Virus record (IMG/VR): IMGVR_UViG_3300042090_002597
Span: 1 to 64,000 of that record
Direction: 5' to 3' (one strand)
Source: a virus
Length of the DNA stretch: 64,000 nucleotides
Shown here: positions 1,199-17,634 of the stretch, one piece after another
Numbering within the stretch: position 1 is the stretch's first letter
Layout of the letters: the number at the start of each line of letters is the position of its first letter
Position numbers and translations under genes: made by a program
Notes under the pieces: model-generated
What the model saw: only the letters and a program-made list of their open reading frames with translations
Databases searched by the model: none
Told to the model about the DNA's origin: nothing

Positions 1199-3019
1199 TT
1201 ACGTCGCCGAGGTGTTGACGATGACAAAAGACAACGGCTCGACCGTTGCGAAGCAGGTGATGTAGCGATTCTGCCCGACCAGCACCACGTTCACGGTGAT
1301 CGAGGCCAGTTGCAGAGTGCCGGTATAGGTCAGCACCAGGGAGCCGGGCTCCCACGAAGCGAGGACCCCGTTGCTGGAGCCGCCGGTGTAGATCAGCGCG
1401 TTGAGGATCCGCTTGACCGCGTTGAGGATGGTCACCTCGGTGGTGGGCGAGGCGATGGTCCCGACGTACTGCCGCAGCACGTTGGTGATCGAGTACGCCA
1501 GCCAGTAGCGGCACGCGACCTGCTGTGAGGATGTGTTCTCGACATTGGCGTCGACCTGCCATGTCGTCACATCGGACAGAATGGTGGGCGGCCCATTGAA
1601 CTGAGCGCCCTGCCAGAGCGCCATGACACCCCCGTTCTCCAGGGTGGTCAATTGCGACGCGGTCAGTTGCGAGCCGCCGGGGTCCTCGACCCCGTTGCCG
1701 TTCAGCACTTTGTTGGTCAGCGGCAGCGCGACGATATTGCCGGTGGCAATCGCGGCCGCTGCGGCCGCTGCGTAGAGTCCGCCGTACAGCTGATTCTGCC
1801 CTGTGGTGGTGTTGGTGCTGTAGATGCCCGGATAGAGATAGGCCATCTGGAGCGAATCGAGGTTCTGCGCATTGGTCACCGAAGTGGCCACAGTGTCGCC
1901 GATGTTGGAACCTGTGAAGCCCCGGCGCCACATGCCGTACGGAGCACTGGACGCGGTCTCGCAGTGCTGCGCCATGAGCGCCTGCACCGCGGTGGAGTTG
2001 CTGTCGCAGAATACGGTCCATGCGGGAATGGAGAGCGCCGCGGTCAAGCCGCTGGCGTAGCTGGAGTTGGTCGGCGGACCGCCGGTTGCGCCAGAGAAAA
2101 AAGTGGCCGTACCCGTTACGGGTATGTTATTGAGCCCTTCCGCAGACCCGCTTGTCGTTGTTGCGGATGCTAGTGTGGACGCGAACTGATTGACCCAAAA
2201 CACGGGATCGTTTTTGATCGCCCTGACGACATTGTATTGAAGCACACCGCCACTCGGCAGTTGCAGTCCTTCGTTAGTTATGGACTGCAAAAGAGTACAA
2301 GGAAGCTGTCCATTAGTGGACGACAGTGGCTGCGCAAAATAAAAACCGGTTCCGTTAAGATACTCCATAAGAAGAGAAACTGTGGAATATCCGCCGGAGC
2401 CTATATTAACCGAAATGGATTCTGACGGCACCGGACTGATCGTGGAGAAAGTAGGCGAAGATCCGCTGGCTATTACGTTTAAGGTGACGACAACAGCGCC
2501 CGTGGCCGCCCCGGAATACGCCATGATGAATGGGATTCCGAGATTGGCACCGACAATCTGAGTTCCTGCGAAATTATCAGTCAGCGTAAGATTATACCCG
2601 CCCAGGCCTGAACTCGGCGGGCTTACCTGATAAGTCAGTTTGTTGGAGGGCGGCCCGTAAAGAGTAGACGTCAGCGCCAACTGAACATTGCCGGTTGCAT
2701 TGAGCAGTGCAGCTTGCGATTGCGTGTTGCTGCTCACGTCCATGAACGTAATCAGCTGCGCTCCATTCACTGCCGGTGAAGGATTCGCCATGAACGGAAC
2801 ATACGCAGCCGCCGGTCCACCTCGGAGAGCGGCAAGCAGGTTTTGCGGATTGACGTAAGTGGTTGGTGTGAAGGGCTTCGGCCCCCAACCATAGCCGAGG
2901 AATAGCAGCGGCGGAGTGGTTGGAGGCGTGTTCGGGCCTGCATTCGCCACGTTGTCCGCGTAGTAGGCACCCGGTAGCGAAATATAGGCGCCGTCAAAGG
3001 TGATTCCCTGTTGGGGCAT
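1199..3019 (-). CDS. Contractile tail sheath protein
   Basis: 606 aa; N-terminal LPGAY and GWGP...P motifs, and a sheath-like C-terminus (YPG, PLTNK, DVTT), typical of myovirus sheaths. Confidence 0.85.
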   Translation of the reverse strand: MPQQGITFDGAYISLPGAYYADNVANAGPNTPPTTPPLLFLGYGWGPKPFTPTTYVNPQNLLAALRGGPAAAYVPFMANPSPAVNGAQLITFMDVSSNTQSQAALLNATGNVQLALTSTLYGPPSNKLTYQVSPPSSGLGGYNLTLTDNFAGTQIVGANLGIPFIMAYSGAATGAVVVTLNVIASGSSPTFSTISPVPSESISVNIGSGGYSTVSLLMEYLNGTGFYFAQPLSSTNGQLPCTLLQSITNEGLQLPSGGVLQYNVVRAIKNDPVFWVNQFASTLASATTTSGSAEGLNNIPVTGTATFFSGATGGPPTNSSYASGLTAALSIPAWTVFCDSNSTAVQALMAQHCETASSAPYGMWRRGFTGSNIGDTVATSVTNAQNLDSLQMAYLYPGIYSTNTTTGQNQLYGGLYAAAAAAAIATGNIVALPLTNKVLNGNGVEDPGGSQLTASQLTTLENGGVMALWQGAQFNGPPTILSDVTTWQVDANVENTSSQQVACRYWLAYSITNVLRQYVGTIASPTTEVTILNAVKRILNALIYTGGSSNGVLASWEPGSLVLTYTGTLQLASITVNVVLVGQNRYITCFATVEPLSFVIVNTSAT

Positions 3020-3447: not shown

Positions 3448-5403
3448 CTAGTCGAAACTGACGAAGACGCCTCCCGGCTGTGGCGGTGGGGTCGGAGGCA
3501 CCGGAGGTGCGGGAGGCGGTTCAATGGTGAAATTGACCTGCACTGCCGTGCTCTGGGGGCCTGGTGTCCGAAAGGTGGTGATCGCCGTGACGATGCTCTG
3601 GACGATCCGCACCATCTTGTTGAACTGGCACCCGAGAACGCTGAAAGTTTGGCCCTGGCTGATCTTTATCAGAAGGGGAGTGGTGGGTGCTTTTACGAAG
3701 GCCACCACTACCTGGCCGAGAAGTGCCTTGGCGTACTTGCCCAGCGAATGTGTCACCACCACGGCCTGCCCTGTGACAGTCACTGCCGTTTGCGATCGGA
3801 GCCGAGAAACTTGCACCGTGAACGTCTGTCCGAGTGTGAGCCTGACCGTTTTTCCTGCCATCTTTGCGGCTACAAGAACCTGGCCGAGCGTTGTGGCGAC
3901 AGACACGCCAGCAGTGTGAACCGCCTGTGTCGTAGTTATCGCCTGTGTCAGCAGCAGCGTTACGGTTTTGCGAACCGATTTTCCGACTGCTATGGACTGC
4001 CCTAGCAGCGCTGCCACAGCGACAGAATGAGCAGCCTTGGTCGCCACATTGACAGTCTGCGATAATACCGCGGCCACAATCCTGGCCGCGCGCTTGGTCG
4101 AACTGACTGTCTGGCCTATCCCCATGGAGATTGTCCTACGGGCCTGCTTAACGACTGCTACTGTCTGCGCTAGCGCTGCCGCAACTAATCTATTTGCCGT
4201 TTTCACGATATGCACATTTTGCAGCAGCGACACACTCACAGTTATCCCGTGAAATACTTTCGTTCCGGCAGACAATGTCTGTCCCAGCAGCAGAGGTACC
4301 GCACTGGTCGCCCCGCTGTACAGTTTAGTTACCTTTACAGATTGAGCTATGATAGTTGATTTGGCAGACGTAACCGCAGTAGCCGCACGAGCAAAAGTTT
4401 GCGCGGATGTTATTTTCTTGGTAGCGGACACAGCCGCAGTTGCGCGCTTGAACGTCTGCCCTAGCGTCACCGCACTTGTTTTAAGTCTGTTTCTTATTAT
4501 GGTGGTTGCAACAGTTTCGCCGAGAGTAAACGCATTCGTCTTTACGCGGTTTCTTGTTTCTTTTGTCGTCAGCGTTTCTGCAAGTGTAATTGCCGCTGTT
4601 TTCAAATATTGCGTGAACGCAGACCCTACTATTTCTGCTAAAATGTCATCGTCAGGGAATATCAAAAACTGATATGGATTTTTATCTATCTGCTGCATTT
4701 CGGCAGCGGTCAGAGTGCGGGTCCACATAAAAGCAACAAGAGTTGTCGCCTGCAAATAGCTTCCGGAACTTGATCCATTCCCCATCAAATCCACTTCTGA
4801 AGTTGCGGTAAACGCAACAGTTCCTGAAAGTGTCGTAGAATTTTGAAGAGTTCCTTTCGAATAGCAAGATATGGTAGTCGAAGAAAAAGTCGCACCGAAA
4901 GAATTTACCGGCCCCGCGGTCCACCCTGTTCCTGCGGTTTGATACAGCGTACCTCCGGCACCTGTTCCTGCGTACACCGATCCGGTAGGATTGCCATCTA
5001 GCAGTGAATACACCCAGTACGGAGAGCCGAGCCCGTTCTGGTAAGTCATTCCGAAAAGGATTGTTGCGTTAAAGCCCGATCCTCCCGATATGTTTGTTCC
5101 CCGCCAATATACAGACGCATTGTTGGCCGATTGCATCTGCAACGGCACGTTGCTGGAAAAAGCGCCACTACCATTCACAGCACCCGACAAAAGACCCAAG
5201 CCCTCTGGAGTCATATTTGGAGTGCAACTAACTGGGACCAAATCCGCGCCTTGTCCCGTGAGATTTTTAACCGGCCCGAGCGGTGTAGCACCAGGCACAT
5301 AGCATAGCGACAACCCTGCAGTGATTGGATTTGACCAGTCTATCCGCGGTAAGCCGCCCGGAAGAAAATTTCTTGGTTTTTGCTTTATCCCGGTTGGAAT
5401 CAT
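3448..5403 (-). CDS. Virion protein with a LamG/ConA-like N-terminal domain and a degenerate LGQT repeat region
   Basis: 651 aa; IDWSNPIT..L..C and W.RTLTAAEM..I..NPY motifs bracket a lectin-like domain, followed by many ~19-aa (L/I)GQT-type Thr/Val-rich repeats. Confidence 0.6.
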   Translation of the reverse strand: MIPTGIKQKPRNFLPGGLPRIDWSNPITAGLSLCYVPGATPLGPVKNLTGQGADLVPVSCTPNMTPEGLGLLSGAVNGSGAFSSNVPLQMQSANNASVYWRGTNISGGSGFNATILFGMTYQNGLGSPYWVYSLLDGNPTGSVYAGTGAGGTLYQTAGTGWTAGPVNSFGATFSSTTISCYSKGTLQNSTTLSGTVAFTATSEVDLMGNGSSSGSYLQATTLVAFMWTRTLTAAEMQQIDKNPYQFLIFPDDDILAEIVGSAFTQYLKTAAITLAETLTTKETRNRVKTNAFTLGETVATTIIRNRLKTSAVTLGQTFKRATAAVSATKKITSAQTFARAATAVTSAKSTIIAQSVKVTKLYSGATSAVPLLLGQTLSAGTKVFHGITVSVSLLQNVHIVKTANRLVAAALAQTVAVVKQARRTISMGIGQTVSSTKRAARIVAAVLSQTVNVATKAAHSVAVAALLGQSIAVGKSVRKTVTLLLTQAITTTQAVHTAGVSVATTLGQVLVAAKMAGKTVRLTLGQTFTVQVSRLRSQTAVTVTGQAVVVTHSLGKYAKALLGQVVVAFVKAPTTPLLIKISQGQTFSVLGCQFNKMVRIVQSIVTAITTFRTPGPQSTAVQVNFTIEPPPAPPVPPTPPPQPGGVFVSFD

Positions 5404-5415
5404 ATCTGCCGCACC

Positions 5416-5913
5416 TTAGTACTGGGTGGCGACAGGCCCCGCCTTGATGAGATTTCCGCTGGAATACAGCGCGGCTCCCGTAAGATTCTGGATCAAAACT
5501 TTACAGGTAGGCCAGGGATTCTTGAAATAACTCTGGCCCCATTTCTGATTGTTCGCCGCAAGCGCAACAGCGTCAAATGGAATGATGAAATCAGGCGATC
5601 TCGGCAAAGCCATTACCGTCGTGCTTGGTGTCGAGATTGCGGATTCGTAAGTGCTGCCGCCATCCGGAGATTTCAGATACCAGCCAGCGATGAAGCCGCC
5701 TGCGGTCGGCGTGAAAGCACCACCTGCGGTGAAGTATATTTCGGACCAAATCGCATTGGCGAAATTGGTCTGCGTGAAGACGCCGGAAGTGCCGCCGACG
5801 CTGCTGGTGGCAGCGGAGCCATTGGCAAGTGAATTCAGTTCGGTCGACATCAAATTGAACGGAGTCGCTATGAACCCGTTGGTGCCTGCTGATTCAAGAA
5901 AATTTGTAGGCAC
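5416..5913 (-). CDS. Putative virion structural protein
   Basis: 165 aa, S/T/G-rich, in the structural operon. Confidence 0.6.
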   Translation of the reverse strand: MPTNFLESAGTNGFIATPFNLMSTELNSLANGSAATSSVGGTSGVFTQTNFANAIWSEIYFTAGGAFTPTAGGFIAGWYLKSPDGGSTYESAISTPSTTVMALPRSPDFIIPFDAVALAANNQKWGQSYFKNPWPTCKVLIQNLTGAALYSSGNLIKAGPVATQY

Positions 5914-5919
5914 CGGGGA

Positions 5920-6606
5920 TTATGCTCCCGAGAACTGGTCCGTGACCGTGAACAGGATGCTGTCGCCGGAGTTCAGCGCCAGGCCGGCAAAGTCGGCATG
6001 GGCAAACATATTCCCGCCCAGTGACGCCGGAACGGAAGCGGTCTGACCGCCGACCGTCCACGAAGTATAGGCACCTCCGTCTCCGCCCACGGTCACCGAG
6101 GCACCGGAAGTTTGGATGCCCGACACGGAACCCAGCTGACCGCGGACGATCGTCACCAAAGTGGTGTTCTGACCGCCGGTCACCAGAACCGTCTCGCCGC
6201 CGGTGGTGAGTCCGCCAAGCTCAATGTAGAAGTTGCCGCTGGTCGGCCCGACCGCAGCCGCAAGGGTAATGCTGGTAGCGGAGGCAGTCGCCGAGGCGAA
6301 AAGCGTGGTGGTCGGACTGAGCGTGGTGGTGTCGAACAGCGCCACCTCGGTGATGGTCTTGGCCGCGGTTGCAGTGATCGAGCCGGTGACCTTGTAGGTA
6401 TCCGCCAGGAAGCTGGTGCTGATGCCCGACGATGTGCCAGCGGTGCGTGCTTCGGTGGCGGGCGTGAACATGTTCACATTGGCATTCGACGACCCGGTGA
6501 CGCTGGATGTACCCCAGCCGATGTTCAGCGGCTCGGTCCCAGAACTGCGAAGCCGGTTGACGAGGATCGAGCGCCCCGAAAAACAGACCGATGCGCCGTT
6601 CGCCAT
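5920..6606 (-). CDS. Putative virion structural protein
   Basis: 228 aa; IGWGT, ITEVALF and GDSILFT motifs seen in phage tail/collar-type proteins. Confidence 0.6.
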   Translation of the reverse strand: MANGASVCFSGRSILVNRLRSSGTEPLNIGWGTSSVTGSSNANVNMFTPATEARTAGTSSGISTSFLADTYKVTGSITATAAKTITEVALFDTTTLSPTTTLFASATASATSITLAAAVGPTSGNFYIELGGLTTGGETVLVTGGQNTTLVTIVRGQLGSVSGIQTSGASVTVGGDGGAYTSWTVGGQTASVPASLGGNMFAHADFAGLALNSGDSILFTVTDQFSGA

Positions 6607-6609
6607 CTC

Positions 6610-8055
6610 TCAAATCTCCTTCAACGCCTCCGACACATCGGAGATCACCTGGTTCCAGTCTCCACGCTTTTTCTGGCGAAACAGCCGTACAGACGGGTAC
6701 CAGGGCGTGGTGTCCGGGTCTTTCCCCCAGAGCCAGTAGGCATCATAGCAGAGCATCACGAAGCATCGCACGCCGAGAGCACCCGCGAGATGGGCGACCA
6801 TGGTGCAGCAAGTCACCACAACATCCATCTGCATCAAGGCGATACCCGTCAGTACAAGGTCGGATTCGATGTGCGGCCGCAAATCTTCCATGACCAGGTA
6901 CGCACCCGTACGCCCGAGATCGTCATGCCCTTCGCCGCATTGGAGCGAGTACAGGACATTCCGGGGGTCGGTGGCGAGATGCAGCATGTGCTCGATCGGC
7001 ACGGACCGTCGGACCTGCGTGGCGTTTTCCGGATTGCCGGTCCAGACCACGCCGATTTTCCGACACCCTTCCCGCGGCGGCAGCGGCATATTCACTTTTG
7101 CCGCGGCGTTCTGAGCCGCTACTCGCTGGCGGATATATCCGGGGTCCGGATAGATGTTGTCCAGCCGCGCGCCTGCGAAGTAGGCGAGGCTGTGCAGATA
7201 CACGCCATAATCATATCGCTCCGGTCCGTCCTGATCCGGCCACAAAATGCCGGAAGGAACGAAGTCGGCGACAGCCCGAAATTCCCAAAAAAGGTTCTGG
7301 TAGGACGTGTGAACATTCAATTTGATTCGAACATCTGGATATTTTTGCTTCACCCAGTGGATGTAGCGAGCGAACGCGATGCTGTCTCCGATCCCTTGCT
7401 CCGTCTGGATGAACAGTGTTTTTCCGTTCAGGTCCGATCCGTCCCAGTACGGCACGCCAAGAGGCGGCAACTTGAATTCCTTCATATTGCCGCCGACACG
7501 GTTTTCGTAAAGACGCAATCCTTCCGCCCAGTCACCTTTGGCCAGTAGCATGAGGGACAAGTGAATGGATTCAGCGCTGGATCGCTCGGGAATATCGGCA
7601 AGTCGGCGCATTTCATATTCTGCGCTGTCGTACTCTCCGAGAATACCCCACACAAGAGCCCGGTTGCTCTTGGCGTTCTCGTATTCCGGGATAATGTTGA
7701 TCGCTCTTTCGAACGCAAACAAGGAATCTTCGAACCTGCCGAGTGCATGCAGCGCGACACCAAGCTCGGCCCACGCCAAGCCGAACCGTGGCGCCAATGC
7801 AATAGCACGGCGCAAAAGTGCAATGGCTACGGCATAGCGTTTTTCCTGGATCGTCTCCACCGCCGTTTTGACAAGCGTAACGGCCTCTTCGCGTATTTTG
7901 GCTTCTTCTTCGGTCTCAGGCCGTCCGCGCAGCGTCTCGGCCGGGTTGACCGATATCACTCCGCCGTCACCCTCCGGTCTCGGAATTTGTGCAACCGTGC
8001 CGTCGAGATACGTTACCGTTATGAGCGCCGAAGGACCGGGACTGACGTCATCCAT
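6610..8055 (-). CDS. TPR-repeat protein with GT9-like glycosyltransferase domain
   Basis: TPR helices followed by EQGIGD, IGVVWTGNP, AHLAGALG and TPWYPSVRLFRQ...GDW motifs. Confidence 0.85.
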   Translation of the reverse strand: MDDVSPGPSALITVTYLDGTVAQIPRPEGDGGVISVNPAETLRGRPETEEEAKIREEAVTLVKTAVETIQEKRYAVAIALLRRAIALAPRFGLAWAELGVALHALGRFEDSLFAFERAINIIPEYENAKSNRALVWGILGEYDSAEYEMRRLADIPERSSAESIHLSLMLLAKGDWAEGLRLYENRVGGNMKEFKLPPLGVPYWDGSDLNGKTLFIQTEQGIGDSIAFARYIHWVKQKYPDVRIKLNVHTSYQNLFWEFRAVADFVPSGILWPDQDGPERYDYGVYLHSLAYFAGARLDNIYPDPGYIRQRVAAQNAAAKVNMPLPPREGCRKIGVVWTGNPENATQVRRSVPIEHMLHLATDPRNVLYSLQCGEGHDDLGRTGAYLVMEDLRPHIESDLVLTGIALMQMDVVVTCCTMVAHLAGALGVRCFVMLCYDAYWLWGKDPDTTPWYPSVRLFRQKKRGDWNQVISDVSEALKEI

Positions 8056-8061
8056 GGGCGA

Positions 8062-8334
8062 TCATGCCGCCGCAGCAGGTTCAGGTTCTGCCGGGGCCGG
8101 GGCAGGCAACGTAAACGTCACCGGCACCGTGTCACCGTCGCTTACGCCGTCCCATGCTTCGCGCTCGGCCTTGCTGAACAGGCGCAACGTAAGCGTGCCG
8201 TGGTACGCACCTGCAACCGGGGTCAATTCGACCTCCAGCACACTGACGTCGGCCTGCGCGTCCTCGCCGTTGATGGTGACGGTGCGCGGGGTCATGTGCG
8301 CGGATTTCCGGTGCACGTTGAACATGATCTGCAT
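8062..8334 (-). CDS. Hypothetical protein
   Basis: 90 aa ORF with RBS, in operon. Confidence 0.55.
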   Translation of the reverse strand: MQIMFNVHRKSAHMTPRTVTINGEDAQADVSVLEVELTPVAGAYHGTLTLRLFSKAEREAWDGVSDGDTVPVTFTLPAPAPAEPEPAAAA

Positions 8335-8346
8335 GATTTCGCCCTT

Positions 8347-8625
8347 TCAACTAAACCCAAAAAGCCAGCCTTTTTTCTTTTTCGCCACATGCTTCGGCCG
8401 CCCGGGCTTCGACCTGGCCGCGCCGCAATTCGGGCATATCTCGCCGACAAACTGCCCGATACGAACGTCGCCCGGGTCCACCTGGACGCCCGGAACACTG
8501 TCCCAGCCACGATCAACGGAAGACTTGTACACCCCCGGCGCCCCACAGCGACCGCACGCACGAATGATCTGCGCCTGGATGCCGATCTTCGGTTTCGTCT
8601 CGGAAATGCTGATCTGCTCGGTCAT
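8347..8625 (-). CDS. Small zinc-ribbon protein
   Basis: CGRC and CPNC pairs. Confidence 0.55.
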   Translation of the reverse strand: MTEQISISETKPKIGIQAQIIRACGRCGAPGVYKSSVDRGWDSVPGVQVDPGDVRIGQFVGEICPNCGAARSKPGRPKHVAKKKKGWLFGFS

Positions 8626-8628
8626 GCG

Positions 8629-9543
8629 CTACGTATCCGTGATCGTCTCGGTGTCCTGAACCACTTCCAGGTTCACATTGATCCGCTCGATCAGATTGAA
8701 CCCGGTGAGGATTGTTACATCAAACACACCCTCCAGGTCAAACATGACGTCGGCCCAGTAGAAACCCGGCATCTGGCCAGTGAACTCATCGTGGGTGGTG
8801 CCTGATGTCGCCTGGAAAGAATGCCGGATATTCTGTCCAATCTGAGAGAACAAGGTGGCTTTCAGTGCCCGAAAAGCCATGAGCAGCGTGTCGCGATAGA
8901 AGTCCCGCTCATCCGCATTCTGACTGAACACACTGATCCGCCAGACCCGTCTTGCCCAACCCGGCAGCGTCCACAGATTGTCCGGTTTCGTAACCAGGAC
9001 AACATCCTGACCAATCATCGTATCGTTCTGTTGGAACAAATCCAGATTGACGACAATGAACGGTGTCGCTGCCAGACCGCCCTGCGGCATTTTTGTGCTG
9101 ACCTGAACCGGCGCTACCGCTACACCTGCTGGTATAGGAGCGTTATCGCAAGCCGCCTGGAGAAGGCGAATCAACAGCTGCGACAGCCCATCTGGCGTCG
9201 TAACTATTGACCCTGCGGGTGTAATTGGTCCGATTTGAGTAGTGCCAGTCGTATCAGTGGTCCGCCACACATACTGAAGAGTAGAATCCAAAGGCTGCGA
9301 AGACGTGCTTGGCCCGTCGCCAACGTCTGCCCAAATAGGAAGAGGCGTGCCGCTGTATATTTGAGTGAACGTGCCGAGTCCTGTAACGCCGGATACCGCC
9401 CGGGAGAGCGTCATCAAAGTAACCCCAGACGGCGGCGAAAAATTGCCTTGATCAGCGCCATAGAACTGTAGAAGCACGGCTCCGCCTACCGGTAGCGGAC
9501 TCGCAACAACAGGAGGGCCGGACCCACTCATTTGCTGAACCAA
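8629..9543 (-). CDS. Putative neck/tail-completion protein
   Basis: 304 aa, located between the head-tail adaptor genes and the sheath; the true start may be the ATG a few codons downstream. Confidence 0.55.
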   Translation of the reverse strand: MVQQMSGSGPPVVASPLPVGGAVLLQFYGADQGNFSPPSGVTLMTLSRAVSGVTGLGTFTQIYSGTPLPIWADVGDGPSTSSQPLDSTLQYVWRTTDTTGTTQIGPITPAGSIVTTPDGLSQLLIRLLQAACDNAPIPAGVAVAPVQVSTKMPQGGLAATPFIVVNLDLFQQNDTMIGQDVVLVTKPDNLWTLPGWARRVWRISVFSQNADERDFYRDTLLMAFRALKATLFSQIGQNIRHSFQATSGTTHDEFTGQMPGFYWADVMFDLEGVFDVTILTGFNLIERINVNLEVVQDTETITDT

Positions 9544-9584
9544 AATCCTCTTGACTTACGAAACACAGAGTAGCACGTTAACAG

Positions 9585-9655
9585 CATCCGGCGCTGCCAA
9601 GCGTAGTACTGTACGGTAAAGTATGGTCCGGTCAAGCACCGCAAGCCAAGGTTTT
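9585..9655 (+). ncRNA. NGY-NN pentamer tract A (putative guide RNA)
   Basis: ggc-gc tgc-ca agc-gt agt-ac tgt-ac ggt-aa agt-at ggt-cc ggt-ca agc-ac cgc-aa gcc-aa ggtttt; a TTGACT -35-like box lies at 9551. Confidence 0.8.
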
Positions 9656-9874
9656 TCAGGCAGCCGATTTCAGTTTTACGCCGCCTTCCACAAACTCGAC
9701 GCCCGCTCGCTCCAGCGCACTGCGGATTTTTTCAGCAGTGCTAACCCGGGCGTCCCGCGCTCCACCTTCAAATAGTTTTACGGTGATCTCGGCCACACCG
9801 CTCTGCGCGGCGAGGTCCGACTGACGAATCCCCAGCAGCGCCCGAGCAGCTCTGACTTGTCCTGCGGTTAGCAT
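9656..9874 (-). CDS. XRE/Cro-family HTH transcriptional regulator
   Basis: MLTAGQVRAARALLGIRQSDLAAQSGV...ALERAGVEF is a classic alphaproteobacterial XRE sequence; transcribed divergently from the Cas7-like gene. Confidence 0.9.
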   Translation of the reverse strand: MLTAGQVRAARALLGIRQSDLAAQSGVAEITVKLFEGGARDARVSTAEKIRSALERAGVEFVEGGVKLKSAA

Positions 9875-9929
9875 ATTAGGGACATACCACAGCGGCTCCG
9901 CAAAATACAACTGCGTAGTAAAAACATAC

Positions 9930-9958
9930 TTGACGTATCGTAAATCATTGTCTATAGA
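9930..9958 (+). promoter_or_regulatory. Sigma70-type promoter for tract B and the Cas7-like gene
   Basis: TTGACG-17 nt-TATAGA directly upstream of tract B. Confidence 0.65.
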
Positions 9959-9962
9959 TGTC

Positions 9963-10027
9963 AGTAGCGCGTCGTGACGCGTTGCTAGGCCATGCAGCGT
10001 GACGCTCTGCTTCGCAAACCAAGGAGT
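9963..10027 (+). ncRNA. NGY-NN pentamer tract B (5' leader of the Cas7-like gene)
   Basis: 11 consecutive NGY-NN units (9963-10017), then ACCAAGGAG, which overlaps the RBS. Confidence 0.75.
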
Positions 10028-10032
10028 TAGGT

Positions 10033-10620
10033 ATGAAAATCCATGTGACGATTGAGGGCACTACCCCTCTTCTGATGAACCGTTTCACCGAGCAGAATGA
10101 GGTAGCCCTTTCCAGCGGCACTAGTGCCTCATTCAAAGGCAGTCGAGGCACACCGCGGGAGCAGGCAACACCGAAATGCTACGCAGACGAAAATGGCATG
10201 CTGTATATCCCCGGTCCGAACATCTTCGCCACCATTATCGCAGCGGGCACCTTCCACAAGGCGGGTAAGTCGAAGTTGACCACCATGAAGTCCAGTCTCA
10301 TTCCGGCCGGGCTGTTAGTTGAGGACTTGGTCTGTTCGCTCAACACCGACAAGTGGGAGGTGGACAGTCGCTCGGTGGTGATTCCCAGCACCGGCGGTCG
10401 CGTGATGTGCCACCGGCCGCGAGTGGATCACTGGTCATGTTCGTTCACTCCGGATGTCGACGGCACCATGTTTGACCCGTCCCTGATCCGCGCCGTAATT
10501 GACGACGCCGGGAAGAAGGTGGGTCTGGGCGACTACCGTCCGGCACGCAAAGGTCCGTTTGGTCGTTTCGTAGTCAAGACGTGGGCTGTCGAGGATATCA
10601 AGTTGAAGAAGGTTGCATAA
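10033..10620 (+). CDS. Stand-alone Cas7/RAMP-superfamily RNA-binding protein
   Basis: 195 aa; N-terminal beta strand (I.V.IEG.TPLLM), YIPG..I helix motif and C-terminal glycine-rich loop GLGDYRP..KGPFGRF typical of RAMP/Cas7. No other cas genes and no CRISPR array nearby. Confidence 0.8.
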   Translation: MKIHVTIEGTTPLLMNRFTEQNEVALSSGTSASFKGSRGTPREQATPKCYADENGMLYIPGPNIFATIIAAGTFHKAGKSKLTTMKSSLIPAGLLVEDLVCSLNTDKWEVDSRSVVIPSTGGRVMCHRPRVDHWSCSFTPDVDGTMFDPSLIRAVIDDAGKKVGLGDYRPARKGPFGRFVVKTWAVEDIKLKKVA

Positions 10621-10625
10621 TATGG

Positions 10626-10706
10626 CGTGTTGTTCTTCCTAAAGTTGCTGTGCCACGTCAGGCGTCGCACCGTAGGGTTTTGTTAGGCAGTGCAAAGCAA
10701 GGTTTT
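10626..10706 (+). ncRNA. NGY-NN pentamer tract C
   Basis: 12 uninterrupted NGY-NN units from 10646, ending TGCAA AGCAA GGTTTT. Confidence 0.8.
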
Positions 10707-10723
10707 AGTTTATTACATTTTAG

Positions 10724-10784
10724 CGCATAGCGAAGTGGTGTATTGTCCTGTTTCGCAACGCACGGTGGTGTAGCGCAAGGTTTT
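10724..10784 (+). ncRNA. NGY-NN pentamer tract D
   Basis: 12 of 12 units fit NGY-NN, ending CGCAA GGTTTT; an AT-rich linker separates it from tract C. Confidence 0.8.
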
Positions 10785-10791
10785 AATTTAT

Positions 10792-10873
10792 AGCAGTATA
10801 CGGCCCTGCGCGGTTACGCGCGGTCCAGTGCAGCGCACTACTGCCTGGCGCTGTATAGCTTGGCGAGGTTTTT
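10792..10873 (+). ncRNA. NGY-NN pentamer tract E
   Basis: 14 of 16 units fit NGY-NN, ending GGCGA GGTTTTT. Confidence 0.8.
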
Positions 10874-10882
10874 AATTGCGTA

Positions 10883-11422
10883 TTAAACTAATCCTTGAGC
10901 CATCCCCCTGGCCATCGCAGCTAATGTTCCGGCTGGAGAATAAGCTGGCATGCTCGGGATGATCCAACTGTCCGCCGGAGAGTTCGGTCCGATCGATGCG
11001 AATCCACTGGACGTACCGGCACGCACTTCCGCCCACATCATCGGCCTGGCCGGACCGCCGCCAACACGCTTCAAACCGGTCATGGAGAGATGCTGCGCGC
11101 TGCCGACCGGCCGGTGTATCGGTATGGAGCGGCCGCGCAGCGCGGCAACGGTCTTCATGTCGAACGAACGGTGGCCTTCCTCCAGAAACAGCGCCTCCGG
11201 TGCCACACTTTCGTCCGCCAGGATTGCGACCGTGTTTTCGTCGACCTGCCTGAAACTCAGCGATGAAGCATAGCGGCCGCTTGGATAGAACAGCCGCTTG
11301 CCGTTCAACATGTCCTTGCCGAGCGCGAAATTCATCCATTTCACGAATATCTCTACACCGATCTCGGTGACGAGTTCGGGTGGAAGGTCCGTCTTGATGA
11401 CGAAGACATGCCCCGTGCTCAT
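10883..11422 (-). CDS. Putative neck/virion morphogenesis protein
   Basis: 179 aa; SGRY..S, LEEG...FDMK and WIIP motifs, resembling neck-region proteins of large myoviruses. Confidence 0.55.
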   Translation of the reverse strand: MSTGHVFVIKTDLPPELVTEIGVEIFVKWMNFALGKDMLNGKRLFYPSGRYASSLSFRQVDENTVAILADESVAPEALFLEEGHRSFDMKTVAALRGRSIPIHRPVGSAQHLSMTGLKRVGGGPARPMMWAEVRAGTSSGFASIGPNSPADSWIIPSMPAYSPAGTLAAMARGMAQGLV

Positions 11423-11439
11423 GCTTGAACTCTAGTTCG

Positions 11440-11550
11440 GGTAGTGCTACTTCTCGCATTGTGTTGCTTGGTGCTGCTGCGCCCGGTGTCGCAGGGTACA
11501 GCGTTGTTAGGCGGAGCCGAGCGCCGCACTGTAGTGCAATGCAAGGTTTT
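11440..11550 (+). ncRNA. NGY-NN pentamer tract F
   Basis: 21 of 22 units fit NGY-NN, ending TGCAA TGCAA GGTTTT; lies intergenically between two minus-strand neck genes, with TTGAAC at 11425. Confidence 0.8.
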
Positions 11551-11552
11551 CA

Positions 11553-12428
11553 TTACGGTCCTATTTTAGCACTGCCAACCATTACAGTGTACGGCCGCGC
11601 GGTGCCGCCGACCTGCACCGAGCCCGGCGCCGACTGGGTTACGCCGCGCTGCCTCGTCCAGAAGTCCAGCGACTGCAGCCGCCAGCGCTTCGGCTCATTG
11701 GCCATGCCGCCACCGAAAGCGCGCGTATGCGGCAGGCCGCCCGCGGCGCGGAACACCACATAGATCGGCGATGCCTGAAACTCGACCATGTAGTTGGTGC
11801 CTACCGGATAGCCGCCGATTCTCACCGTCGGACCGTCTGACGAATAGTTCTCGACCGGTACCACTGCGTTGCTGACCGGATCCCATACCGTCACCGCACC
11901 CTGCGGCTCGATCTGCAAATTCTGCTGGTACGGCAGGTTCTCTTTCACACCCACCTGCAGCACTGCGGTGTAGCGGATCAGCGAATCGACCGGCACAAAT
12001 TGATCATTGGTGGATGCGTTCTGCCAAATATTCGTCGGCTGGCCAGGATCGCCGACCGGCAGAGTGGGGTTCCAGTAAGGCACCGTCAACGAGGGTTCGG
12101 CGGTCTGCCACATGCCGTACGATTCGTTCATCCGCACACCCGGCTCGTCGGGGGTGGGCGAGACGTGCATGAAGGTAATTAGCACCTTGGCCGGAATGGA
12201 AGGCGGATCCCAGTAAGTGCCAACACCACCGCACTGGGTGCAGTTGCGCTGCGCCGAGCCCAGTTGCGGTAGTTGTCCGTTGGCGCCGCTGCCGGCGTAC
12301 ACGCACGGGCATGTGTGCGATTTCAGCCAGGAGCAGCGTTGCCCATGGGTCGCGATCAATGCCTCGAATGCCCCCGGCGGAAGGGCTTTCAGAGTCGGCG
12401 GAATGAATGAACCTGCGAACGCGCTCAT
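11553..12428 (-). CDS. Putative head-closure/neck protein with zinc-binding motif
   Basis: 291 aa; F..LI..HG...W.KS..CPC...C..C.G.G pattern. Confidence 0.6.
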   Translation of the reverse strand: MSAFAGSFIPPTLKALPPGAFEALIATHGQRCSWLKSHTCPCVYAGSGANGQLPQLGSAQRNCTQCGGVGTYWDPPSIPAKVLITFMHVSPTPDEPGVRMNESYGMWQTAEPSLTVPYWNPTLPVGDPGQPTNIWQNASTNDQFVPVDSLIRYTAVLQVGVKENLPYQQNLQIEPQGAVTVWDPVSNAVVPVENYSSDGPTVRIGGYPVGTNYMVEFQASPIYVVFRAAGGLPHTRAFGGGMANEPKRWRLQSLDFWTRQRGVTQSAPGSVQVGGTARPYTVMVGSAKIGP

Positions 12429-13519
12429 CAGAGATTGCCCAGATGCACACCGCCGCCCATGGTTTTCGCCCGTCGCGTCAGACGCTTCACTTCATCGCTG
12501 AATGCCTCGATGGCGCCGGCAAACGCGCCTTTCGGATCGTATCGGCTGCGGAAAAGCAAGCCATCCACCTGCGTGGTGGTTTCGAGCGCACCGAAATTCA
12601 CCGATAACTGCATGCTTTTCAGCGCCGTCACCGCAGACCGTGCCAACACGAGTTGTTTCATGAAAGCCCACGATCCCGCGTAGTCGGATCGGGTTAGCCC
12701 TGCGGTGTACTGAAACCACATGCCTTGCGGAACATTCTCGGCAAATCCCATGAAAGCCAACTGCATGGCGAACAGCGGCAGCATCTGCACCGAAGTGGCT
12801 GGCACAAAACGCACCAGTCCGCGGTTCTGATCTTCCACCACCCAGCTTTGCGGCATGCGAAAGTATTCGTTCAGCAGCGGATAGATGAAAGCCACATTTT
12901 TCGTGCCGTTCAGATTCGCGGCACTCACGATCCCGGCGGGATCAACGTAGTCGACACCCTTGACCGGACGCCAACGCAGCCGTTGATATATCCAGCCTTC
13001 GTCACGCGCACGTTCGAAGAAAAAATCGTAGCCAGGCTCTGCGTAGTCGTAGTCCAGGCCGAGCTGCTGGTAATTGTATACCGTGTTCAGCCCGAGCAGT
13101 TGGCTCTCTTGCTGGGTCTTCGCCGGCGGGGCCGCAATAGCGGTCTGGCAGAGTCGGATATTGGTCTCGGTTTCGATCTCATCTTCCGCTTCACGTATCC
13201 AGCCGAAAATCGTGTCGTCGCTGATCGGGATCGGCGGATTGCTGTACTGCTGGAGCGGGATTTGAACGTATGCCCGCAGATCGTTCGGCTGCAAACCAGA
13301 TTTGGTTTTGGCGCCGGACGAGAAAGTGATGATGGTCGGTTCCAGAAGGGGACCGGTGACATAGGAGCCGCCAATACCAGCCGGACCACCAATTGGGCTT
13401 TCTCCAATAGTGAAGCCGCTGGTGGGAACCAAAGTGGGCACCGCCGAAACAGTGTTCCAGTTCCATAGCGCCCGGGTAGTGACGGGCGAATATGTGGTTG
13501 GCAGAGTGGTCTCAGACAT
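12428..13519 (-). CDS. Putative head-tail adaptor protein
   Basis: 363 aa, downstream of the capsid gene; AE..IE.E.NI, YTAG and S..DG motifs. Confidence 0.6.
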   Translation of the reverse strand: MSETTLPTTYSPVTTRALWNWNTVSAVPTLVPTSGFTIGESPIGGPAGIGGSYVTGPLLEPTIITFSSGAKTKSGLQPNDLRAYVQIPLQQYSNPPIPISDDTIFGWIREAEDEIETETNIRLCQTAIAAPPAKTQQESQLLGLNTVYNYQQLGLDYDYAEPGYDFFFERARDEGWIYQRLRWRPVKGVDYVDPAGIVSAANLNGTKNVAFIYPLLNEYFRMPQSWVVEDQNRGLVRFVPATSVQMLPLFAMQLAFMGFAENVPQGMWFQYTAGLTRSDYAGSWAFMKQLVLARSAVTALKSMQLSVNFGALETTTQVDGLLFRSRYDPKGAFAGAIEAFSDEVKRLTRRAKTMGGGVHLGNL

Positions 13520-13982
13520 GCGGATTTCCCGCCTGTTGCTGACGCAACATCCGGCGCTCGCGCTTGGAAAGGTGCTGGTGCTGCGGCGGGGTAGAGGTTG
13601 CGATGTCCTGTACGTGCTTGTCTAGCTCGGCCGCTACTTCAGCTATGGATCGGCATATGTCCGTTGCGTCGTCATCCATCTCTTCCGGCTCGACCGGTGG
13701 CGCCGCGGCCACCACATCGTCGTGGCCATGCCCCTCCAGGACCACTCCGTTCGCACCGCGGAGCGCGGTGATCTGCTCCAGGGTAAGCGCCTCGGTCACA
13801 TAGTCATTCCCGGCCGCCCAGCGAAACTGGACACCCATGACATCGCCGCCCGTACGTGCGTGTTCGCGCCACAGCCGCCAGATCGGAGAACCCCGGAGCA
13901 GCTTCGCGGTGAAGACCATGTAACGGACCTGCGCTGTCAGTGACGTCTTTGGCAGCATAGGCGGTTTCGGTAGCGATGTCAC
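13512..13982 (-). CDS. Hypothetical protein
   Basis: 156 aa ORF overlapping the next gene's start. Confidence 0.5.
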   Translation of the reverse strand: MTSLPKPPMLPKTSLTAQVRYMVFTAKLLRGSPIWRLWREHARTGGDVMGVQFRWAAGNDYVTEALTLEQITALRGANGVVLEGHGHDDVVAAAPPVEPEEMDDDATDICRSIAEVAAELDKHVQDIATSTPPQHQHLSKRERRMLRQQQAGNPHV

Positions 13983-14058
13983 CGCCGATGAAGTGTTTCA
14001 CATGAAACTCTTTTTGAAAAAATCTTATTGTAGTTTTTTGCAAAAAGTTGTATAGCGG

Positions 14059-15642
14059 ATGCTCCCCTTCAAGGAGTGTTTCGTGAAAGCAAACCCGATC
14101 AAATCCTGCCGCGGCTGCACCGACGCCGCTGTGCGAGCGAAGATGCCGCACGAGGAGCAGTGTAACGCCTGCCGAAAGAAAGAATTGAACCGAAAATGGC
14201 GGCTGGCCAACCCAGGTGCGATGGCTGCGAACGCCAGGAAATGGCGCGAGGCCGGCAACAAGACCGTCCGCCCCGAAGGTTACGAGGAGCAGCAGCGCCT
14301 CAAAAAACTGGAAAAATACAGAAACGATCCGGAACATCGCGAGAAAGCCAAGGCGGCCGCCAAACAGCGCCGTCTGGAAAAACCGGATATCGTGAAGGCA
14401 GAAACGAAGTCCTGGATGGAGCGTAATCGTCCGGCAGTCCGGCGGTACCAAAGCGATTATCAGCGCGAGCGGCGCGCGTCAGATCCAGAATTCCACCAGC
14501 GGCTGCTCACCGCGCAGAGCATGTGGCGCATCCGGCACTGGGCGAAAGACCCGCAGAGCAACAGCTGGATACGGCACCTGGAAAACCAATCAATCGACCC
14601 TGTGTGGCGCCAGAGACTGCACGTTTGGCAGGACAACCGATGCTACATGTGCAACAAAAAAGACAACAACATGACGATCGAACACATCATTCCGCGCAGC
14701 CGCAGTGGGCCGACTGTGAAACAAAATATCGTCTATACTTGTTCGTCCTGCAACTATTCCCGCAGGGCTTTGATATGGGGTACCGAGTGGCAACCTCGAA
14801 ATGTCGACACCAGCCTGACCGACCTGACGGTCACTTACAAAACGATCTCGCACGCACTTAGAGAGGCCGGACTAGAAGCTGCTGAAAACGGCCGCGGCGG
14901 TTTCCGCATCCACAGCGATAAGCGCGCATCGTCCCGCGATCTGTACATCCTGTCCACCTTTGCCGCCAGCGAGCGAAACGTGTCGTCTCGTGATGGCCGG
15001 TTCGCGTGCATTCTGCGAGACGCTGACCCGAATGCGATCATTCTGTTCGACTACGAATGGTACGCCCGGGCAAAAGCGGTGCTGAACATGCTTCGGTCGA
15101 AAATGGGCATCGCCGAGAAAGGGATCGGCGCCCGGGAACTGTCAGTGGTCGAAGTGTCCGCCGAGGACGCGACCGTCTTCCTGCGCGATCACCATGTTAT
15201 GGGTGCCGTGGACGCCCCGTTCCGAATCGGGCTGGCCAACGGCGAAATGCTCTGCGGTGTTGGGCTGTTCGCGGACCATGGCGATAGCTACGAATGCGTC
15301 CGGCTCGCCTTCCGCGGACATGTGCCTGGCGGCATGACCCGGATCATCCAAGGTCTGCGGCGCCTGCACGGCAACCGGCCGGTGACCTCGTTCATCGACA
15401 CCCGCTATGCCACTGGAGCCGGGCACGGGACAGTCGGCTTCACTTACGAAGGGAGGACCGAGGAAACCTACCTCTGGGTTTTGCCCGATCGGGTGCAGCA
15501 CCAGCGGTACTTGTCGAACGACAACAAGATGTCGCGCAATCTGCTCTATTTCAACCCGGACCTGCCGCGAGAAAAAAACATTCGTGCGAACGGTATTTTC
15601 AAAGTATGGGTTCCGCCGCGAGCCAAAATGCTACTGGCTTGA
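14059..15642 (+). CDS. HNH endonuclease fused to a Hef-like/GNAT-like homing-endonuclease domain
   Basis: CYMC...TIEHIIPRSRSG....NIV..C..CN HNH motif; C-terminal ARE..V.EV...A..FL..HH..G and S..D.RY motifs. Inserted antisense to the head operon. Confidence 0.75.
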   Translation: MLPFKECFVKANPIKSCRGCTDAAVRAKMPHEEQCNACRKKELNRKWRLANPGAMAANARKWREAGNKTVRPEGYEEQQRLKKLEKYRNDPEHREKAKAAAKQRRLEKPDIVKAETKSWMERNRPAVRRYQSDYQRERRASDPEFHQRLLTAQSMWRIRHWAKDPQSNSWIRHLENQSIDPVWRQRLHVWQDNRCYMCNKKDNNMTIEHIIPRSRSGPTVKQNIVYTCSSCNYSRRALIWGTEWQPRNVDTSLTDLTVTYKTISHALREAGLEAAENGRGGFRIHSDKRASSRDLYILSTFAASERNVSSRDGRFACILRDADPNAIILFDYEWYARAKAVLNMLRSKMGIAEKGIGARELSVVEVSAEDATVFLRDHHVMGAVDAPFRIGLANGEMLCGVGLFADHGDSYECVRLAFRGHVPGGMTRIIQGLRRLHGNRPVTSFIDTRYATGAGHGTVGFTYEGRTEETYLWVLPDRVQHQRYLSNDNKMSRNLLYFNPDLPREKNIRANGIFKVWVPPRAKMLLA

Positions 15643-15693: not shown

Positions 15694-17634
15694 TTAGGCG
15701 TTGGCACCCAACGGGTTCCATTGCGGATTATCAACCACAATGTTTTTTATGTACGCGTGGAACTTGGGGATTCTATTCCTAAGAGCCCCGATTGCGGCCA
15801 CACACCACGGCATATACAGGTTAGCAGCGAACAAATTGATCCTGGTCAGCGGCAGCAGGTAGCGGTAATCCATCGCGCCGTCTTCCTCGCGGAGGTCCAG
15901 CAGGTAGACCGATTCCGAACCCGGGATCAGGTAGTTGTAGTCCACGAAGGTAACCGTGCCAGAACCCGAAGCCGCGATCTGCCCGACATAGCGGAAAGCG
16001 GTCGGCGAACCCGAGGCGTTCAGATAACCACCGGCGCCCGAGCGGAACACACGGAAGTTGGTGGCATCCGCCGCCGCCGGCCCGGCGATGGCGACGTTGA
16101 CCGCGCCCGAAGTGGTGACGGACGAGCCGACCACATAGGACGAAGAGAAGGTCAGGGTCGACTCGTTCATGTTCACGTCGGTGGACGCGACCGCGTAGTA
16201 GTACTTGGTCGAGCCGGACGCATACGGCGAACCGGCGCCGACACCCCAGTTGCTGCCGCTGTAGGCGGCACCCGAGACGGTCATCACCACGCCGGTGGGC
16301 GGGGTGGGACCGGTCGTGGTGGTGGGCGTCGTGCCGTTCGACCGCGGCTGGCCCTGAGCGGGGATATCGCGGGCCGTGATGACGATATCGAGCGGGAACT
16401 GGATCGGTCCGAACCGGGTCCGCATGCCCTGGAGATCGCCGTCGACCACGATACCCTGGCGATCCGCGAAGAACGCATTCGCGAGGTTGTTCAGGTTGGT
16501 GGTGATCAGCGATTGCAGCGAGCCGGCCGTGATCGGCGTCATGAAGGCGTGCGTGGTGCGGCCGAACTTGGTCCACGAAGCGACGTTGCCGGCCACCTCG
16601 TAGATCATGTTGTAGAGGGTCTGCGCCGTCGACCAGCCATTCGCCACCGCGTTCGCGGAGTAGAATGCCTGGTAGTCGAAGATGTTGCCCGACGGGGTGG
16701 TTGCCTCGATGCCGTTGAACTGGTTCGGGAAGGCCGTCGAATTGCCCTTGTAGCAGAGCCAGTCAGCGGTCTGCAGCACGGTCAGCGCCGAGTTGGCGTT
16801 TTCCTGCTCGTTCACCGACACGAAGTTGTTCTGCGCCATCAAGGCGAGCGTGACGGCGCGGCCGTCCAGCATCAGCTTCAGGTTGACCGACTGCAGGGTG
16901 TAGATACCCGCATTGGTGGTCAGCGTGCCGCTGGAGACGTTGGAAAAGCCGCTGGTCGCCGAACCCGGCAGCGCACCGCCCGGATCATCGATGTAGGCGA
17001 AGTAGTCGACCACCTGGAAGGCCGGCGATTTGCTCAGCGCCTGGTAGAGCGTGAAGCTGTCCGGCCGCACGGTGCCGCGGGCGAGGCGCGTGTCGAGCGA
17101 CACGTAGCCGAGCGACTGACCGCCGGTGATGGAGGTGAAGTTGGTCTGGGTGCCGACATCGAGCACCGCTTTGGCCAGCGGATCGCCCGGGTAAGATTTC
17201 GCCACCTCGATCGGATCGATTTCCAGCAGACGCCCGCGGCTGGAGCCGGGGACCGGGCCGGGCGCATTGGTCTGATAGTAGCGCGGCGTGTCGCGCCAGA
17301 CCCGGGCGAATGCGTTCGCCGGCTCGGCGGCCTTGGCCAGCTCGGTCCGCATCTTGACCGTGTCGACCACATGGTTGTTGCCGAGATGCGCGGGCTGGCC
17401 AACCGCGAGACCGGCGAACAGCGGCCGCAGCGGGCCGAGATCGCTGTTGTGCGCCGGCAGCGAGTTCTCGAAAGCGCGGATGGCGCTCACCGAACGATAC
17501 TGTTTCTCCTCGTTCGGTGTGTCGCCGTTCGCGAGAACGGGATCGACATACTCGCCGTCGGGGCGCCGCTCAATCGACTTCAGGATGATTGCGGGCGGCA
17601 CCTTCGGGCCGGCGGACGAGATCTGTTCGGACAT
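15694..17634 (-). CDS. Major capsid protein (long N-terminal propeptide, FN3/Ig-like insertion)
   Basis: 646 aa, strongly biased codon usage; G.SL...SLD, E..N....V....DW....G......QFNG motifs; downstream of protease and scaffold, followed by a terminator. Confidence 0.8.
   Translation of the reverse strand: MSEQISSAGPKVPPAIILKSIERRPDGEYVDPVLANGDTPNEEKQYRSVSAIRAFENSLPAHNSDLGPLRPLFAGLAVGQPAHLGNNHVVDTVKMRTELAKAAEPANAFARVWRDTPRYYQTNAPGPVPGSSRGRLLEIDPIEVAKSYPGDPLAKAVLDVGTQTNFTSITGGQSLGYVSLDTRLARGTVRPDSFTLYQALSKSPAFQVVDYFAYIDDPGGALPGSATSGFSNVSSGTLTTNAGIYTLQSVNLKLMLDGRAVTLALMAQNNFVSVNEQENANSALTVLQTADWLCYKGNSTAFPNQFNGIEATTPSGNIFDYQAFYSANAVANGWSTAQTLYNMIYEVAGNVASWTKFGRTTHAFMTPITAGSLQSLITTNLNNLANAFFADRQGIVVDGDLQGMRTRFGPIQFPLDIVITARDIPAQGQPRSNGTTPTTTTGPTPPTGVVMTVSGAAYSGSNWGVGAGSPYASGSTKYYYAVASTDVNMNESTLTFSSSYVVGSSVTTSGAVNVAIAGPAAADATNFRVFRSGAGGYLNASGSPTAFRYVGQIAASGSGTVTFVDYNYLIPGSESVYLLDLREEDGAMDYRYLLPLTRINLFAANLYMPWCVAAIGALRNRIPKFHAYIKNIVVDNPQWNPLGANA

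Follow-up and report, generated by a model that had tools for sequence, protein, structure and literature searches.

VIPR systems are RNA-guided DNA-binding relatives of CRISPR that were first described in 2026 (10.64898/2026.04.26.720920; 10.64898/2026.04.26.720927). Their Vipr protomers coat a vrRNA made of GGYNN repeats, sequester the GGY bases and present the NN bases, these pair with double-stranded DNA with every third target base left out, and the outcome is transcriptional repression (10.64898/2026.04.26.720920; 10.64898/2026.04.26.720927). The experimental exemplars are the type II system of Escherichia phage SUSP1 and that of a Pseudomonas fulva prophage (10.64898/2026.04.26.720920; 10.64898/2026.04.26.720927). 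The VIPR preprints report relaxed scaffolds (YNNNG and others) for some types, list as natural targets satellites, host (decoy) repeats, prophage regulators and further VIPR loci, and find no match to the source contig above a cut-off of 0.8. We came across no account in them of guides that lie next to the sibling alleles they target. Here, we analyzed such a locus in positions 1 to 64,000 of the virus record IMGVR_UViG_3300042090_002597 (the window, a stretch of 64,000 nucleotides (nt), to which all coordinates refer). By sequence, the gene at 10033-10620 encodes a Vipr protein and the locus is a member of the VIPR systems. Its guides A, E and F, as decoded, spell the alleles that cassette-free relatives (siblings) have of three flanking genes, rather than the carrier's own copies. 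We favor, with moderate confidence, a role of this cassette in allele-specific sibling exclusion or marker exclusion through these three guides.

The locus shares several traits with the SUSP1 and P. fulva systems. The effector, a homolog of SUSP1 Vipr, is a small RAMP protein that stands alone, the NN bases are read with a one-base skip, and pentamer vrRNA genes of 8-19 units flank vipr on the same strand. The predicted targets are coding, on either strand, with the skip on the wobble base, and the system is phage-borne and apparently aimed at a competing mobile element. Unlike in these two systems, the repeat is xGYNN, the first G being free, two guides are dispersed as solo genes, and the predicted targets are sibling alleles of guide-adjacent genes instead of satellites, prophage regulators or VIPR loci. 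SUSP1 vrRNAs moreover have a pseudoknot tail where a short, apparently linear 3' handle (xGCAA xGCAA GGTTTT) is found here, and in place of the downstream vap1 of SUSP1 a divergent upstream helix-turn-helix (HTH) gene is the accessory candidate.

Stand-alone vrRNA genes outside the main array also occur in SUSP1-family phages and F5 satellites (10.64898/2026.10.15.759431). Their guides are likewise directed against close relatives and match self less well, which avoids autoimmunity and provides a precedent for a self-match lower than the rival-match (10.64898/2026.10.15.759431). The targets there are vipr genes, vrRNA loci, satellites and host REP decoys, whereas here they would be structural genes lying 20-480 nt from the guide in the carrier. 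As read from its sequence, the locus is a VIPR member with a relaxed scaffold, a short, apparently unstructured handle and a candidate HTH partner; the linkage of guides A, E and F each to a mismatched allele of the gene that it would target in siblings is an arrangement that we did not find in the preprints.

The Vipr protein and its vrRNA tracts

The system consists of the following features, lengths of proteins being given in amino acids (aa).

10033-10620 (+): vipr, the effector gene, encoding a 195-aa stand-alone RAMP (Cas7-like) protein of a single domain
9656-9910 (-): gene of an XRE-type HTH protein of 84 aa, divergent from vipr
9590-9654, with the handle to 9655 (+): vrRNA A, solo, 13 units; guide units 1-9 (9590-9634), handle 9635-9655
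9963-10017, with the handle to 10027 (+): tract B, vrRNA-like, 11 perfect units, in the leader of the vipr mRNA
10646-10705, with its end at 10706 (+): vrRNA C, 12 perfect units, opening the array of three guides that follows vipr downstream
10724-10783, with its end at 10784 (+): vrRNA D, 12 perfect units
10802-10871, with its end at 10873 (+): vrRNA E, 14 units; guide units 1-10 (10802-10851)
11440-11549, with its end at 11550 (+): vrRNA F, solo, 22 units, one of them irregular; matching guide units 7-17 (11470-11524)
9931-9959 (+): putative sigma-70-like promoter TTGACG-17-TATAGA, from which transcription would start near the first unit of tract B

A single-sequence phmmer search with the vipr product matched the entry 'SUSP1 Vipr protein' of PDB 36pp (E 1e-5), and the profile of its family (66 sequences) matched the same protein over its full length (E 3e-21). 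The AlphaFold2 model (pLDDT 94.5) adopts a Cas7/Csm3 fold. Its top Foldseek matches were Csm3, type VII Cas7 and Cas7-11 (E ~4e-7, TM-score about 0.5-0.58), in a fold library that predates the VIPR structures and offers only CRISPR RAMPs as structural neighbours. The product belongs to phrog_4652, where its function is unassigned, has no Pfam hit, and represents a family of 2276 cluster representatives (50% identity, E<=1e-3). With the Cas7 backbones of class 1 CRISPR-Cas (Csm3, type VII Cas7, Cas7-11) it has in common the RRM/RAMP fold, the G-loop and the thumb. Unlike class 1 systems, the locus has no other cas genes and no adaptation module, and it uses a 5-nt repeat code instead of a contiguous spacer; no direct repeats of the CRISPR array type were found at 7000-14000, where the single RAMP gene stands alone. 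The preliminary description of this DNA had noted a Cas7-like open reading frame (ORF) without an evident nuclease domain, and our search of Vipr for such a domain agrees, a single RAMP domain being all that was found.

The Vipr G-loop, GLGDYRP..FGRF, aligns to GVGDWRP..FGRF of SUSP1 and shares with it the Asp, an aromatic residue and the Arg; the thumb Arg (HRPR) is likewise conserved relative to SUSP1. This suggests that the residues by which SUSP1 Vipr holds G2 and Y3 (the thumb Arg and the Asp, aromatic residue and Arg of the G-loop) are retained. SUSP1 His17, which contacts G1, would correspond to an Asn, and this fits a free first repeat position.

The product of 9656-9910 matches Pfam HTH_3 at E 2.7e-4 (below the cut-off) and is placed by PHROG among transcriptional regulators. 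A homolog occupies the same divergent position beside vipr in 6 of 10 IMG/VR vipr loci. Since it is kept there while the other neighbours differ, the mobile unit appears to be made of the HTH gene, vipr and the vrRNAs. The HTH protein is a candidate accessory protein (vap) or regulator.

The six period-5 tracts A-F lie on the plus strand between 9590 and 11549 and follow the scheme xGYNN: of the 84 units, 81 have G at position 2 and every one has C or T at position 3, while positions 1, 4 and 5 are unbiased. A strict scan of both strands of the 105,740-bp genome gave no further xGYNN tract (block shuffles: 0-1). By their sequence, the six tracts are vrRNA genes. They share the 3' end xGCAA xGC(A/G)A GGTTTT, of which xGCAA xGC(A/G)A GG is common to the relatives, and pseudoknot-free folding of the six vrRNAs gave no structure signal (z -0.7 to +0.5). 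The handle of tract B (CGCAA ACCAAGGAG) overlaps the ribosome-binding site of vipr, that of vrRNA E contains a terminator-like hairpin and T-run (10849-10873), and units 1-4 of tract F overlap a possible promoter, TTGAAC-17-TACTTC.

The promoter proposed upstream of tract B is absent from the list of our consensus scanner, which requires a T at the end of the second hexamer. The promoter and terminator scan returned two minus-strand promoter-like sites and one terminator-like site, not above shuffles. A minus-strand sigma-70-like site (TTGACC-16-TACAGT) at 9608-9635, inside tract A, is directed into the gene 8629-9531, which has a new ribosome-binding site (AAGAGGA) and a longer N-terminus compared to its homolog in L015, a cassette-free contig. 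The insert may supply outward transcription to the downstream operon, although the scan was not above shuffles.

The layout recurs in ten IMG/VR loci whose Vipr is 50-75% identical, with same-strand tracts on either side of vipr, the same 3' handle and a leader tract running into the ribosome-binding site; the leader arrangement of tract B recurs in L002, L004 and L007. One of these loci, L006:5985-7532, contains one 29-unit upstream tract and seven downstream vrRNAs with a nearly canonical GGY/TGY scaffold, which shows that scaffold stringency varies inside this Vipr clade. Homologs of Vipr and of two flanking genes were also found together in two sets, apparently one contig each (P0014/P0279/P0342, 13,546 nt; P0010/P0290/P0370, 10,944 nt). 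If so, these two metagenome contigs would represent further carriers within the phage family.

Guides A, E and F and the alleles of cassette-free relatives

The cassette sits within a neck-gene operon. The genes around it are on the minus strand, as is the HTH gene itself, vipr and the tracts being on the plus strand.

8629-9531 (-): structural-operon gene and predicted target of guide A, 300 aa from ATG, downstream of the cassette
9532-10882: the VIPR cassette, 1.35 kb, in the order E-D-C, vipr, B, HTH, A; siblings have a TGATG overlap here
10883-11422 (-): neck-like protein gene and predicted target of guide E, 179 aa, between tracts F and E
11423-11552: 130-nt insert with tract F, where L015 has an ATGA stop/start overlap
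11553-12428 (-): virion structural protein gene and predicted target of guide F, 291 aa; phrog_1004 (PHROG 'virion structural protein')
9083-9108 (-): own copy of the guide A target, 16/18, 482 nt from the tract, in gene 8629-9531
10920-10948 (-): own copy of the guide E target, 17/20, 49 nt from the tract, at the 3' end of 10883-11422
11569-11600 (+): own copy of the guide F target, 17/22, 20 nt from the tract, antisense of the 3' end of 11553-12428

Guides were decoded by the published rule, in which NN is read and one base is skipped, successive NN being joined by one wildcard. The 3' handle units (xGCAA xGCAA GGTTTT) were trimmed before scoring. This trimming was picked after the alignments had been inspected; it coincides with the handle conserved across relatives, and the mismatches of untrimmed guides concentrate in this handle, whose four units are constant and unpaired. 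With trimmed guides, the A, E and F sites listed above are each the single best in the whole genome on both strands. That these three tracts lie within about 0.5 kb of a near-match, as stated in the preliminary description, is therefore confirmed at 482, 49 and 20 nt. The local region of ~1.2 kb represents 1.2% of the genome, and by hand arithmetic the probability that 3 of 6 best sites are local is about 3.5e-5; Fisher's combination across all six guides gives P 0.005-0.012. The own site of guide F includes a run of six consecutive perfect units.

Only positions 4-5 combined with a one-base skip decode the guides. The other 19 register and skip combinations, that is, other position pairs and skips of 0, 2 or 3, give 11-16 matches and fail, and when RNA position 1 is read as the third base, the x positions match only 3/9 to 3/11. 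The skipped bases are codon wobble positions in all three targets, antisense F as well as sense A and E.

Ten related contigs (L012-L016, L018, L022-L024 and L026) have the three genes abutting, without vipr and without tracts, as had been predicted for element-free relatives, and homologs of 8629-9531 abut the middle gene in every one of them. L015 is the closest (89/81/79% nt and 93/90/87% aa identity for 11553-12428/10883-11422/8629-9531), and its junctions are ATGA and TGATG stop/start overlaps where the carrier has inserts. From these contiguous genes and overlapping junctions, we conclude that the window holds two gene-junction insertions. The targeted sibling sequence compared amounts to 2-9 kb, L015 being a 2-kb contig. 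L016, which is more distant than L015, has seven genes of the carrier's operon, the major head gene among them.

In L015, the homologous sites match guide A at 18/18, guide E at 20/20 and guide F at 20/22, and guide E also matches 20/20 in L016. These matches support the proposal that the guides are directed against the versions of the flanking genes found in element-free phages, and for none of A, E and F did the best perfect target lie in an unrelated locus. A chance or compositional artefact of GC-rich, Ala-rich coding sequence was weighed: with the handle units included, self matches (0.55-0.68) are not above shuffled guides, a scoring that we rejected, and the E target is Ala/Pro-rich. 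We give this explanation hardly any credence: 500 unit-permuted guides each, which keep the dinucleotide content, were compared with 97 kb of relatives and 0 reached the observed scores (null maxima 15, 19 and 18), no sequence in IMG/VR has the exact A or E pattern, and the register and skip controls fail.

The matched contigs could also be fragments of a satellite or parasite with neck-gene homologs, against which the guides would defend the phage. In SUSP1, 18 of 20 guides match a satellite with structural-gene homology to the phage, and L015 is only 2 kb long. Yet L015 and L016 keep the full phage gene order, over seven operon genes in L016, and such a defense leaves the placement of each guide beside its own target gene unexplained. 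We regard it as improbable.

The carrier's own alleles differ from the guides at 2 (A), 3 (E) and 5 (F) informative positions. Self and L015 differ at 11 informative positions, where the guide equals L015 at 9, self at 1 and neither at 1, so that it sides with L015 at 9 of 10 discriminating positions (binomial P 0.011). Between the same two sequences, 16 of 27 skipped bases differ vs 11 of 60 informative bases. At the A site, the carrier has VQVSTKMPQ and siblings AQVTTKMPQ (Ala to Val, Thr to Ser); of 24 homologs, only the carrier's has this T145S substitution, and the QVTTKMP motif is otherwise conserved. At the E site, where siblings have PAYAPAATLA, the carrier's PAYSPAGTLA has one Ala changed to Ser and another to Gly, and its Leu codon is TTA in place of CTN. 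At the F site, 3 of 4 residues are changed in the carrier, and these 32 nt are the most diverged stretch of the gene (6/22 at codon positions 1+2 vs ~6% gene-wide).

The self sites still match the guides at 0.89 (A), 0.85 (E) and 0.77 (F), the first two above the 0.8 cut-off used for natural targets in the preprints. This weighs against a purely sibling-directed role. It would suit self-regulation, in which the guides tolerate the mismatches, bind the flanking genes of the phage itself and tune or time late-operon transcription around the antisense insert, the better sibling match reflecting only ancestry; the position of tract B on the vipr leader and ribosome-binding site also suggests some autoregulation. 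A functional self-target should, however, stay perfect under selection, whereas the guides agree with the sibling at nine of the ten discriminating positions. Furthermore, the phage would suffer from a block of 8629-9531 and its downstream genes, and the preprints report no self-targets above their cut-off. Self-regulation seems quite unlikely to us.

The description of the targets as neck genes holds in part. The model of the 10883-11422 product matches the SaPI1 neck chain 9mu2_P (Z 9.5, rmsd (root-mean-square deviation) 2.4 A over 87 residues), three Z units over the next hit, and no annotation was obtained for gene 8629-9531. Together with gene order, this makes "neck genes" reasonable for one target and positional for the other two. 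The longest ORF at this place, 10872-11459 (195 aa, Arg-rich), was rejected as a wrong frame, the conserved gene being the overlapping 10883-11422; its tblastn matches (spurious, 30-50%) arise because the underlying DNA itself is conserved.

Proposed action and the alternative of homing

What the sequence shows is that the locus belongs to the VIPR family, how its guides are read, which sites A, E and F match, the synteny, and that the match favors the sibling; vrRNA expression, binding, silencing, self-sparing and any fitness effect or homing-like spread are inferred. By analogy with characterized VIPR systems, binding and road-blocking of sibling DNA is the likely action. In the scheme that we propose, a VIPR unit would have inserted antisense into the neck-gene operon. 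The promoter upstream of tract B would most likely yield a B-vipr-C-D-E transcript, cut at AU-rich linkers, and A and F would arise separately, each as a solo vrRNA. Every vrRNA would be coated by Vipr protomers, one per xGYNN unit, holding G and Y and presenting NN, and the NN bases would pair with double-stranded DNA, every third base being skipped. Guides A, E and F would be programmed for the cassette-free sibling alleles of the three flanking structural genes. In a shared cell, the complexes would bind three sites within ~1 kb of the sibling operon, beside the empty insertion sites, and block the sibling DNA by a transcriptional road-block and possibly by hindering replication, packaging or recombination in cis.

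Because each guide adjoins the mismatched allele that would spare the carrier, guide and allele should be co-inherited and resist separation by recombination. Such tight linkage would be the product of selection against self-targeting recombinants, but homing-type co-conversion would require it equally.

Homing of this type is known from free-standing homing endonuclease genes of T-even phages (seg, mob), which are selfish inserts between conserved genes and cause marker exclusion. In T4, seg and mob enzymes have their site in the insert-free neighboring allele, the carrier allele is protected by sequence differences, and the linked region is preferentially inherited. The present locus resembles them in its diverged carrier alleles and in recognition sites that were found in the insert-free allele near the insertion point. 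It differs from them in that the cassette encodes only Vipr and the HTH protein, the nearest HNH gene lying 2.5 kb outside, and in that recognition, here read from sequence, would be RNA-guided and reprogrammable. The HNH features of the window are as follows.

14059-15642 (+): gene of a free-standing endonuclease of the homing type (HNH), antisense; it has the major head gene on one side and the next structural gene on the other
29122-29244 (-) and 20825-20953 (-): HNH-domain hits, one above the Pfam cut-off and one (20825-20953) weak

The preliminary description had counted several HNH genes in the window, which these features bear out (14059-15642, ~29122-29244 and the weak hit at 20825-20953), and had considered that a nuclease could be recruited in trans. 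No nuclease partner is evident, the conserved neighbor is the HTH protein, and nothing links the HNH genes to the cassette. The HNH gene 14059-15642 is absent from L012-L014, and L016 has a 31%-identical homolog at the same place; as an insert, it makes the operon host to a second selfish element.

A nuclease-free form of homing was considered, in which a Vipr filament beside the sibling's empty site stalls replication or provokes a break, and repair copies the cassette together with the linked alleles. The three targets flank the cassette on either side, at distances of 13-480 nt from the two insertion points. This is the geometry that co-conversion by free-standing homing endonucleases calls for, pure silencing would not need proximity, and the operon already hosts a free-standing HNH gene. 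On the other hand, the cassette has no nuclease or recombinase, only an HTH gene besides vipr. The published activity of type II VIPR is binding and repression, nuclease accessory genes occurring in other types, and proximity is also explained by selection for linkage to a guide-resistant allele. We consider homing an unlikely account of the locus. The broader idea that the cassette is an RNA-programmed nuclease-free drive, which would block the sibling genome in cis, be copied by recombination along with its resistant alleles and spread in a phage population as homing endonuclease genes do while guide-plus-escape-allele pairs accrete around it, is speculative and no less doubtful.

Sibling exclusion thus remains the reading that we favor, and several results besides the high self matches weigh against it. 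The self-vs-L015 differences at the A (2/18) and E (3/20) sites are not above the gene-wide rate, so that escape selection is indicated only at F and by T145S. The carrier-type E allele is also not private to the carrier: among close homologs the E site falls into two classes, PAYSPAGTLA (carrier, P0272 and P0333) and PAYAPAATLA (L015/P0332, P0334-P0336 and P0282). Silenced virion proteins act in trans and their loss would not favor the carrier, so a cis effect must be assumed. For guides B, C and D, no target was identified, and the guides of nine other vipr loci (L002-L011) have no near-match in their own 6-20 kb loci. These latter guides have no match to this phage either.

The claim that all decodable guides point at flanking genes accordingly stands for A, E and F, and holds as worded only since B, C and D can be assigned to no target. 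In 395 kb (own genome plus compared loci), B, C and D have no site with 3 or fewer mismatches, apart from one D site at 13/16, which is chance level. The exact B pattern has 0 hits in IMG/VR. Guide C has two pattern hits there, in contigs of 39-51% GC, and guide D has one, in a contig of 33% GC; these contigs have no homology to the phage, the hit numbers are close to chance expectation, and the hits were rejected.

The carrier phage and the meaning of the locus

The three targeted genes are consecutive in the interval from the major head gene to the tail sheath gene.

15694-17634: major head gene
1199-3019: tail sheath gene

Between 8629-9531 and the tail sheath gene, 3448-8625 holds ~5 kb of additional genes, including a TPR protein gene (6610-8055). 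L012 and L014 are without these genes, and homologs of 8347-8625, 8062-8334 and 6610-8055 occur in L019, a contig that shares its metagenome with L015. No tRNAs were detected, and no Rfam family reached its gathering score within the window. A nucleotide comparison with the phage record collection returned no match.

The genome has no tyrosine or serine recombinase, integrase or resolvase. The carrier is probably a lytic myovirus. In the absence of these enzymes, a scenario of resident-prophage immunity is unlikely, and the conflict is probably one among co-infecting lytic phages. The matches of Vipr relatives (Planctomycetota, Mesorhizobium, Geobacter and Phenylobacterium records) were uninformative on the host.

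The locus extends the code in which two bases are read and one is skipped to a relaxed xGYNN scaffold. It also offers a natural pair of matched and mismatched targets for gauging mismatch tolerance. If functional, the cassette would be a linked weapon-and-immunity module between sibling viruses, comparable to greenbeard or toxin-antidote systems. It would give a sequence-level explanation of local marker exclusion that needs no nuclease, and would predict where escape substitutions accumulate in structural genes.

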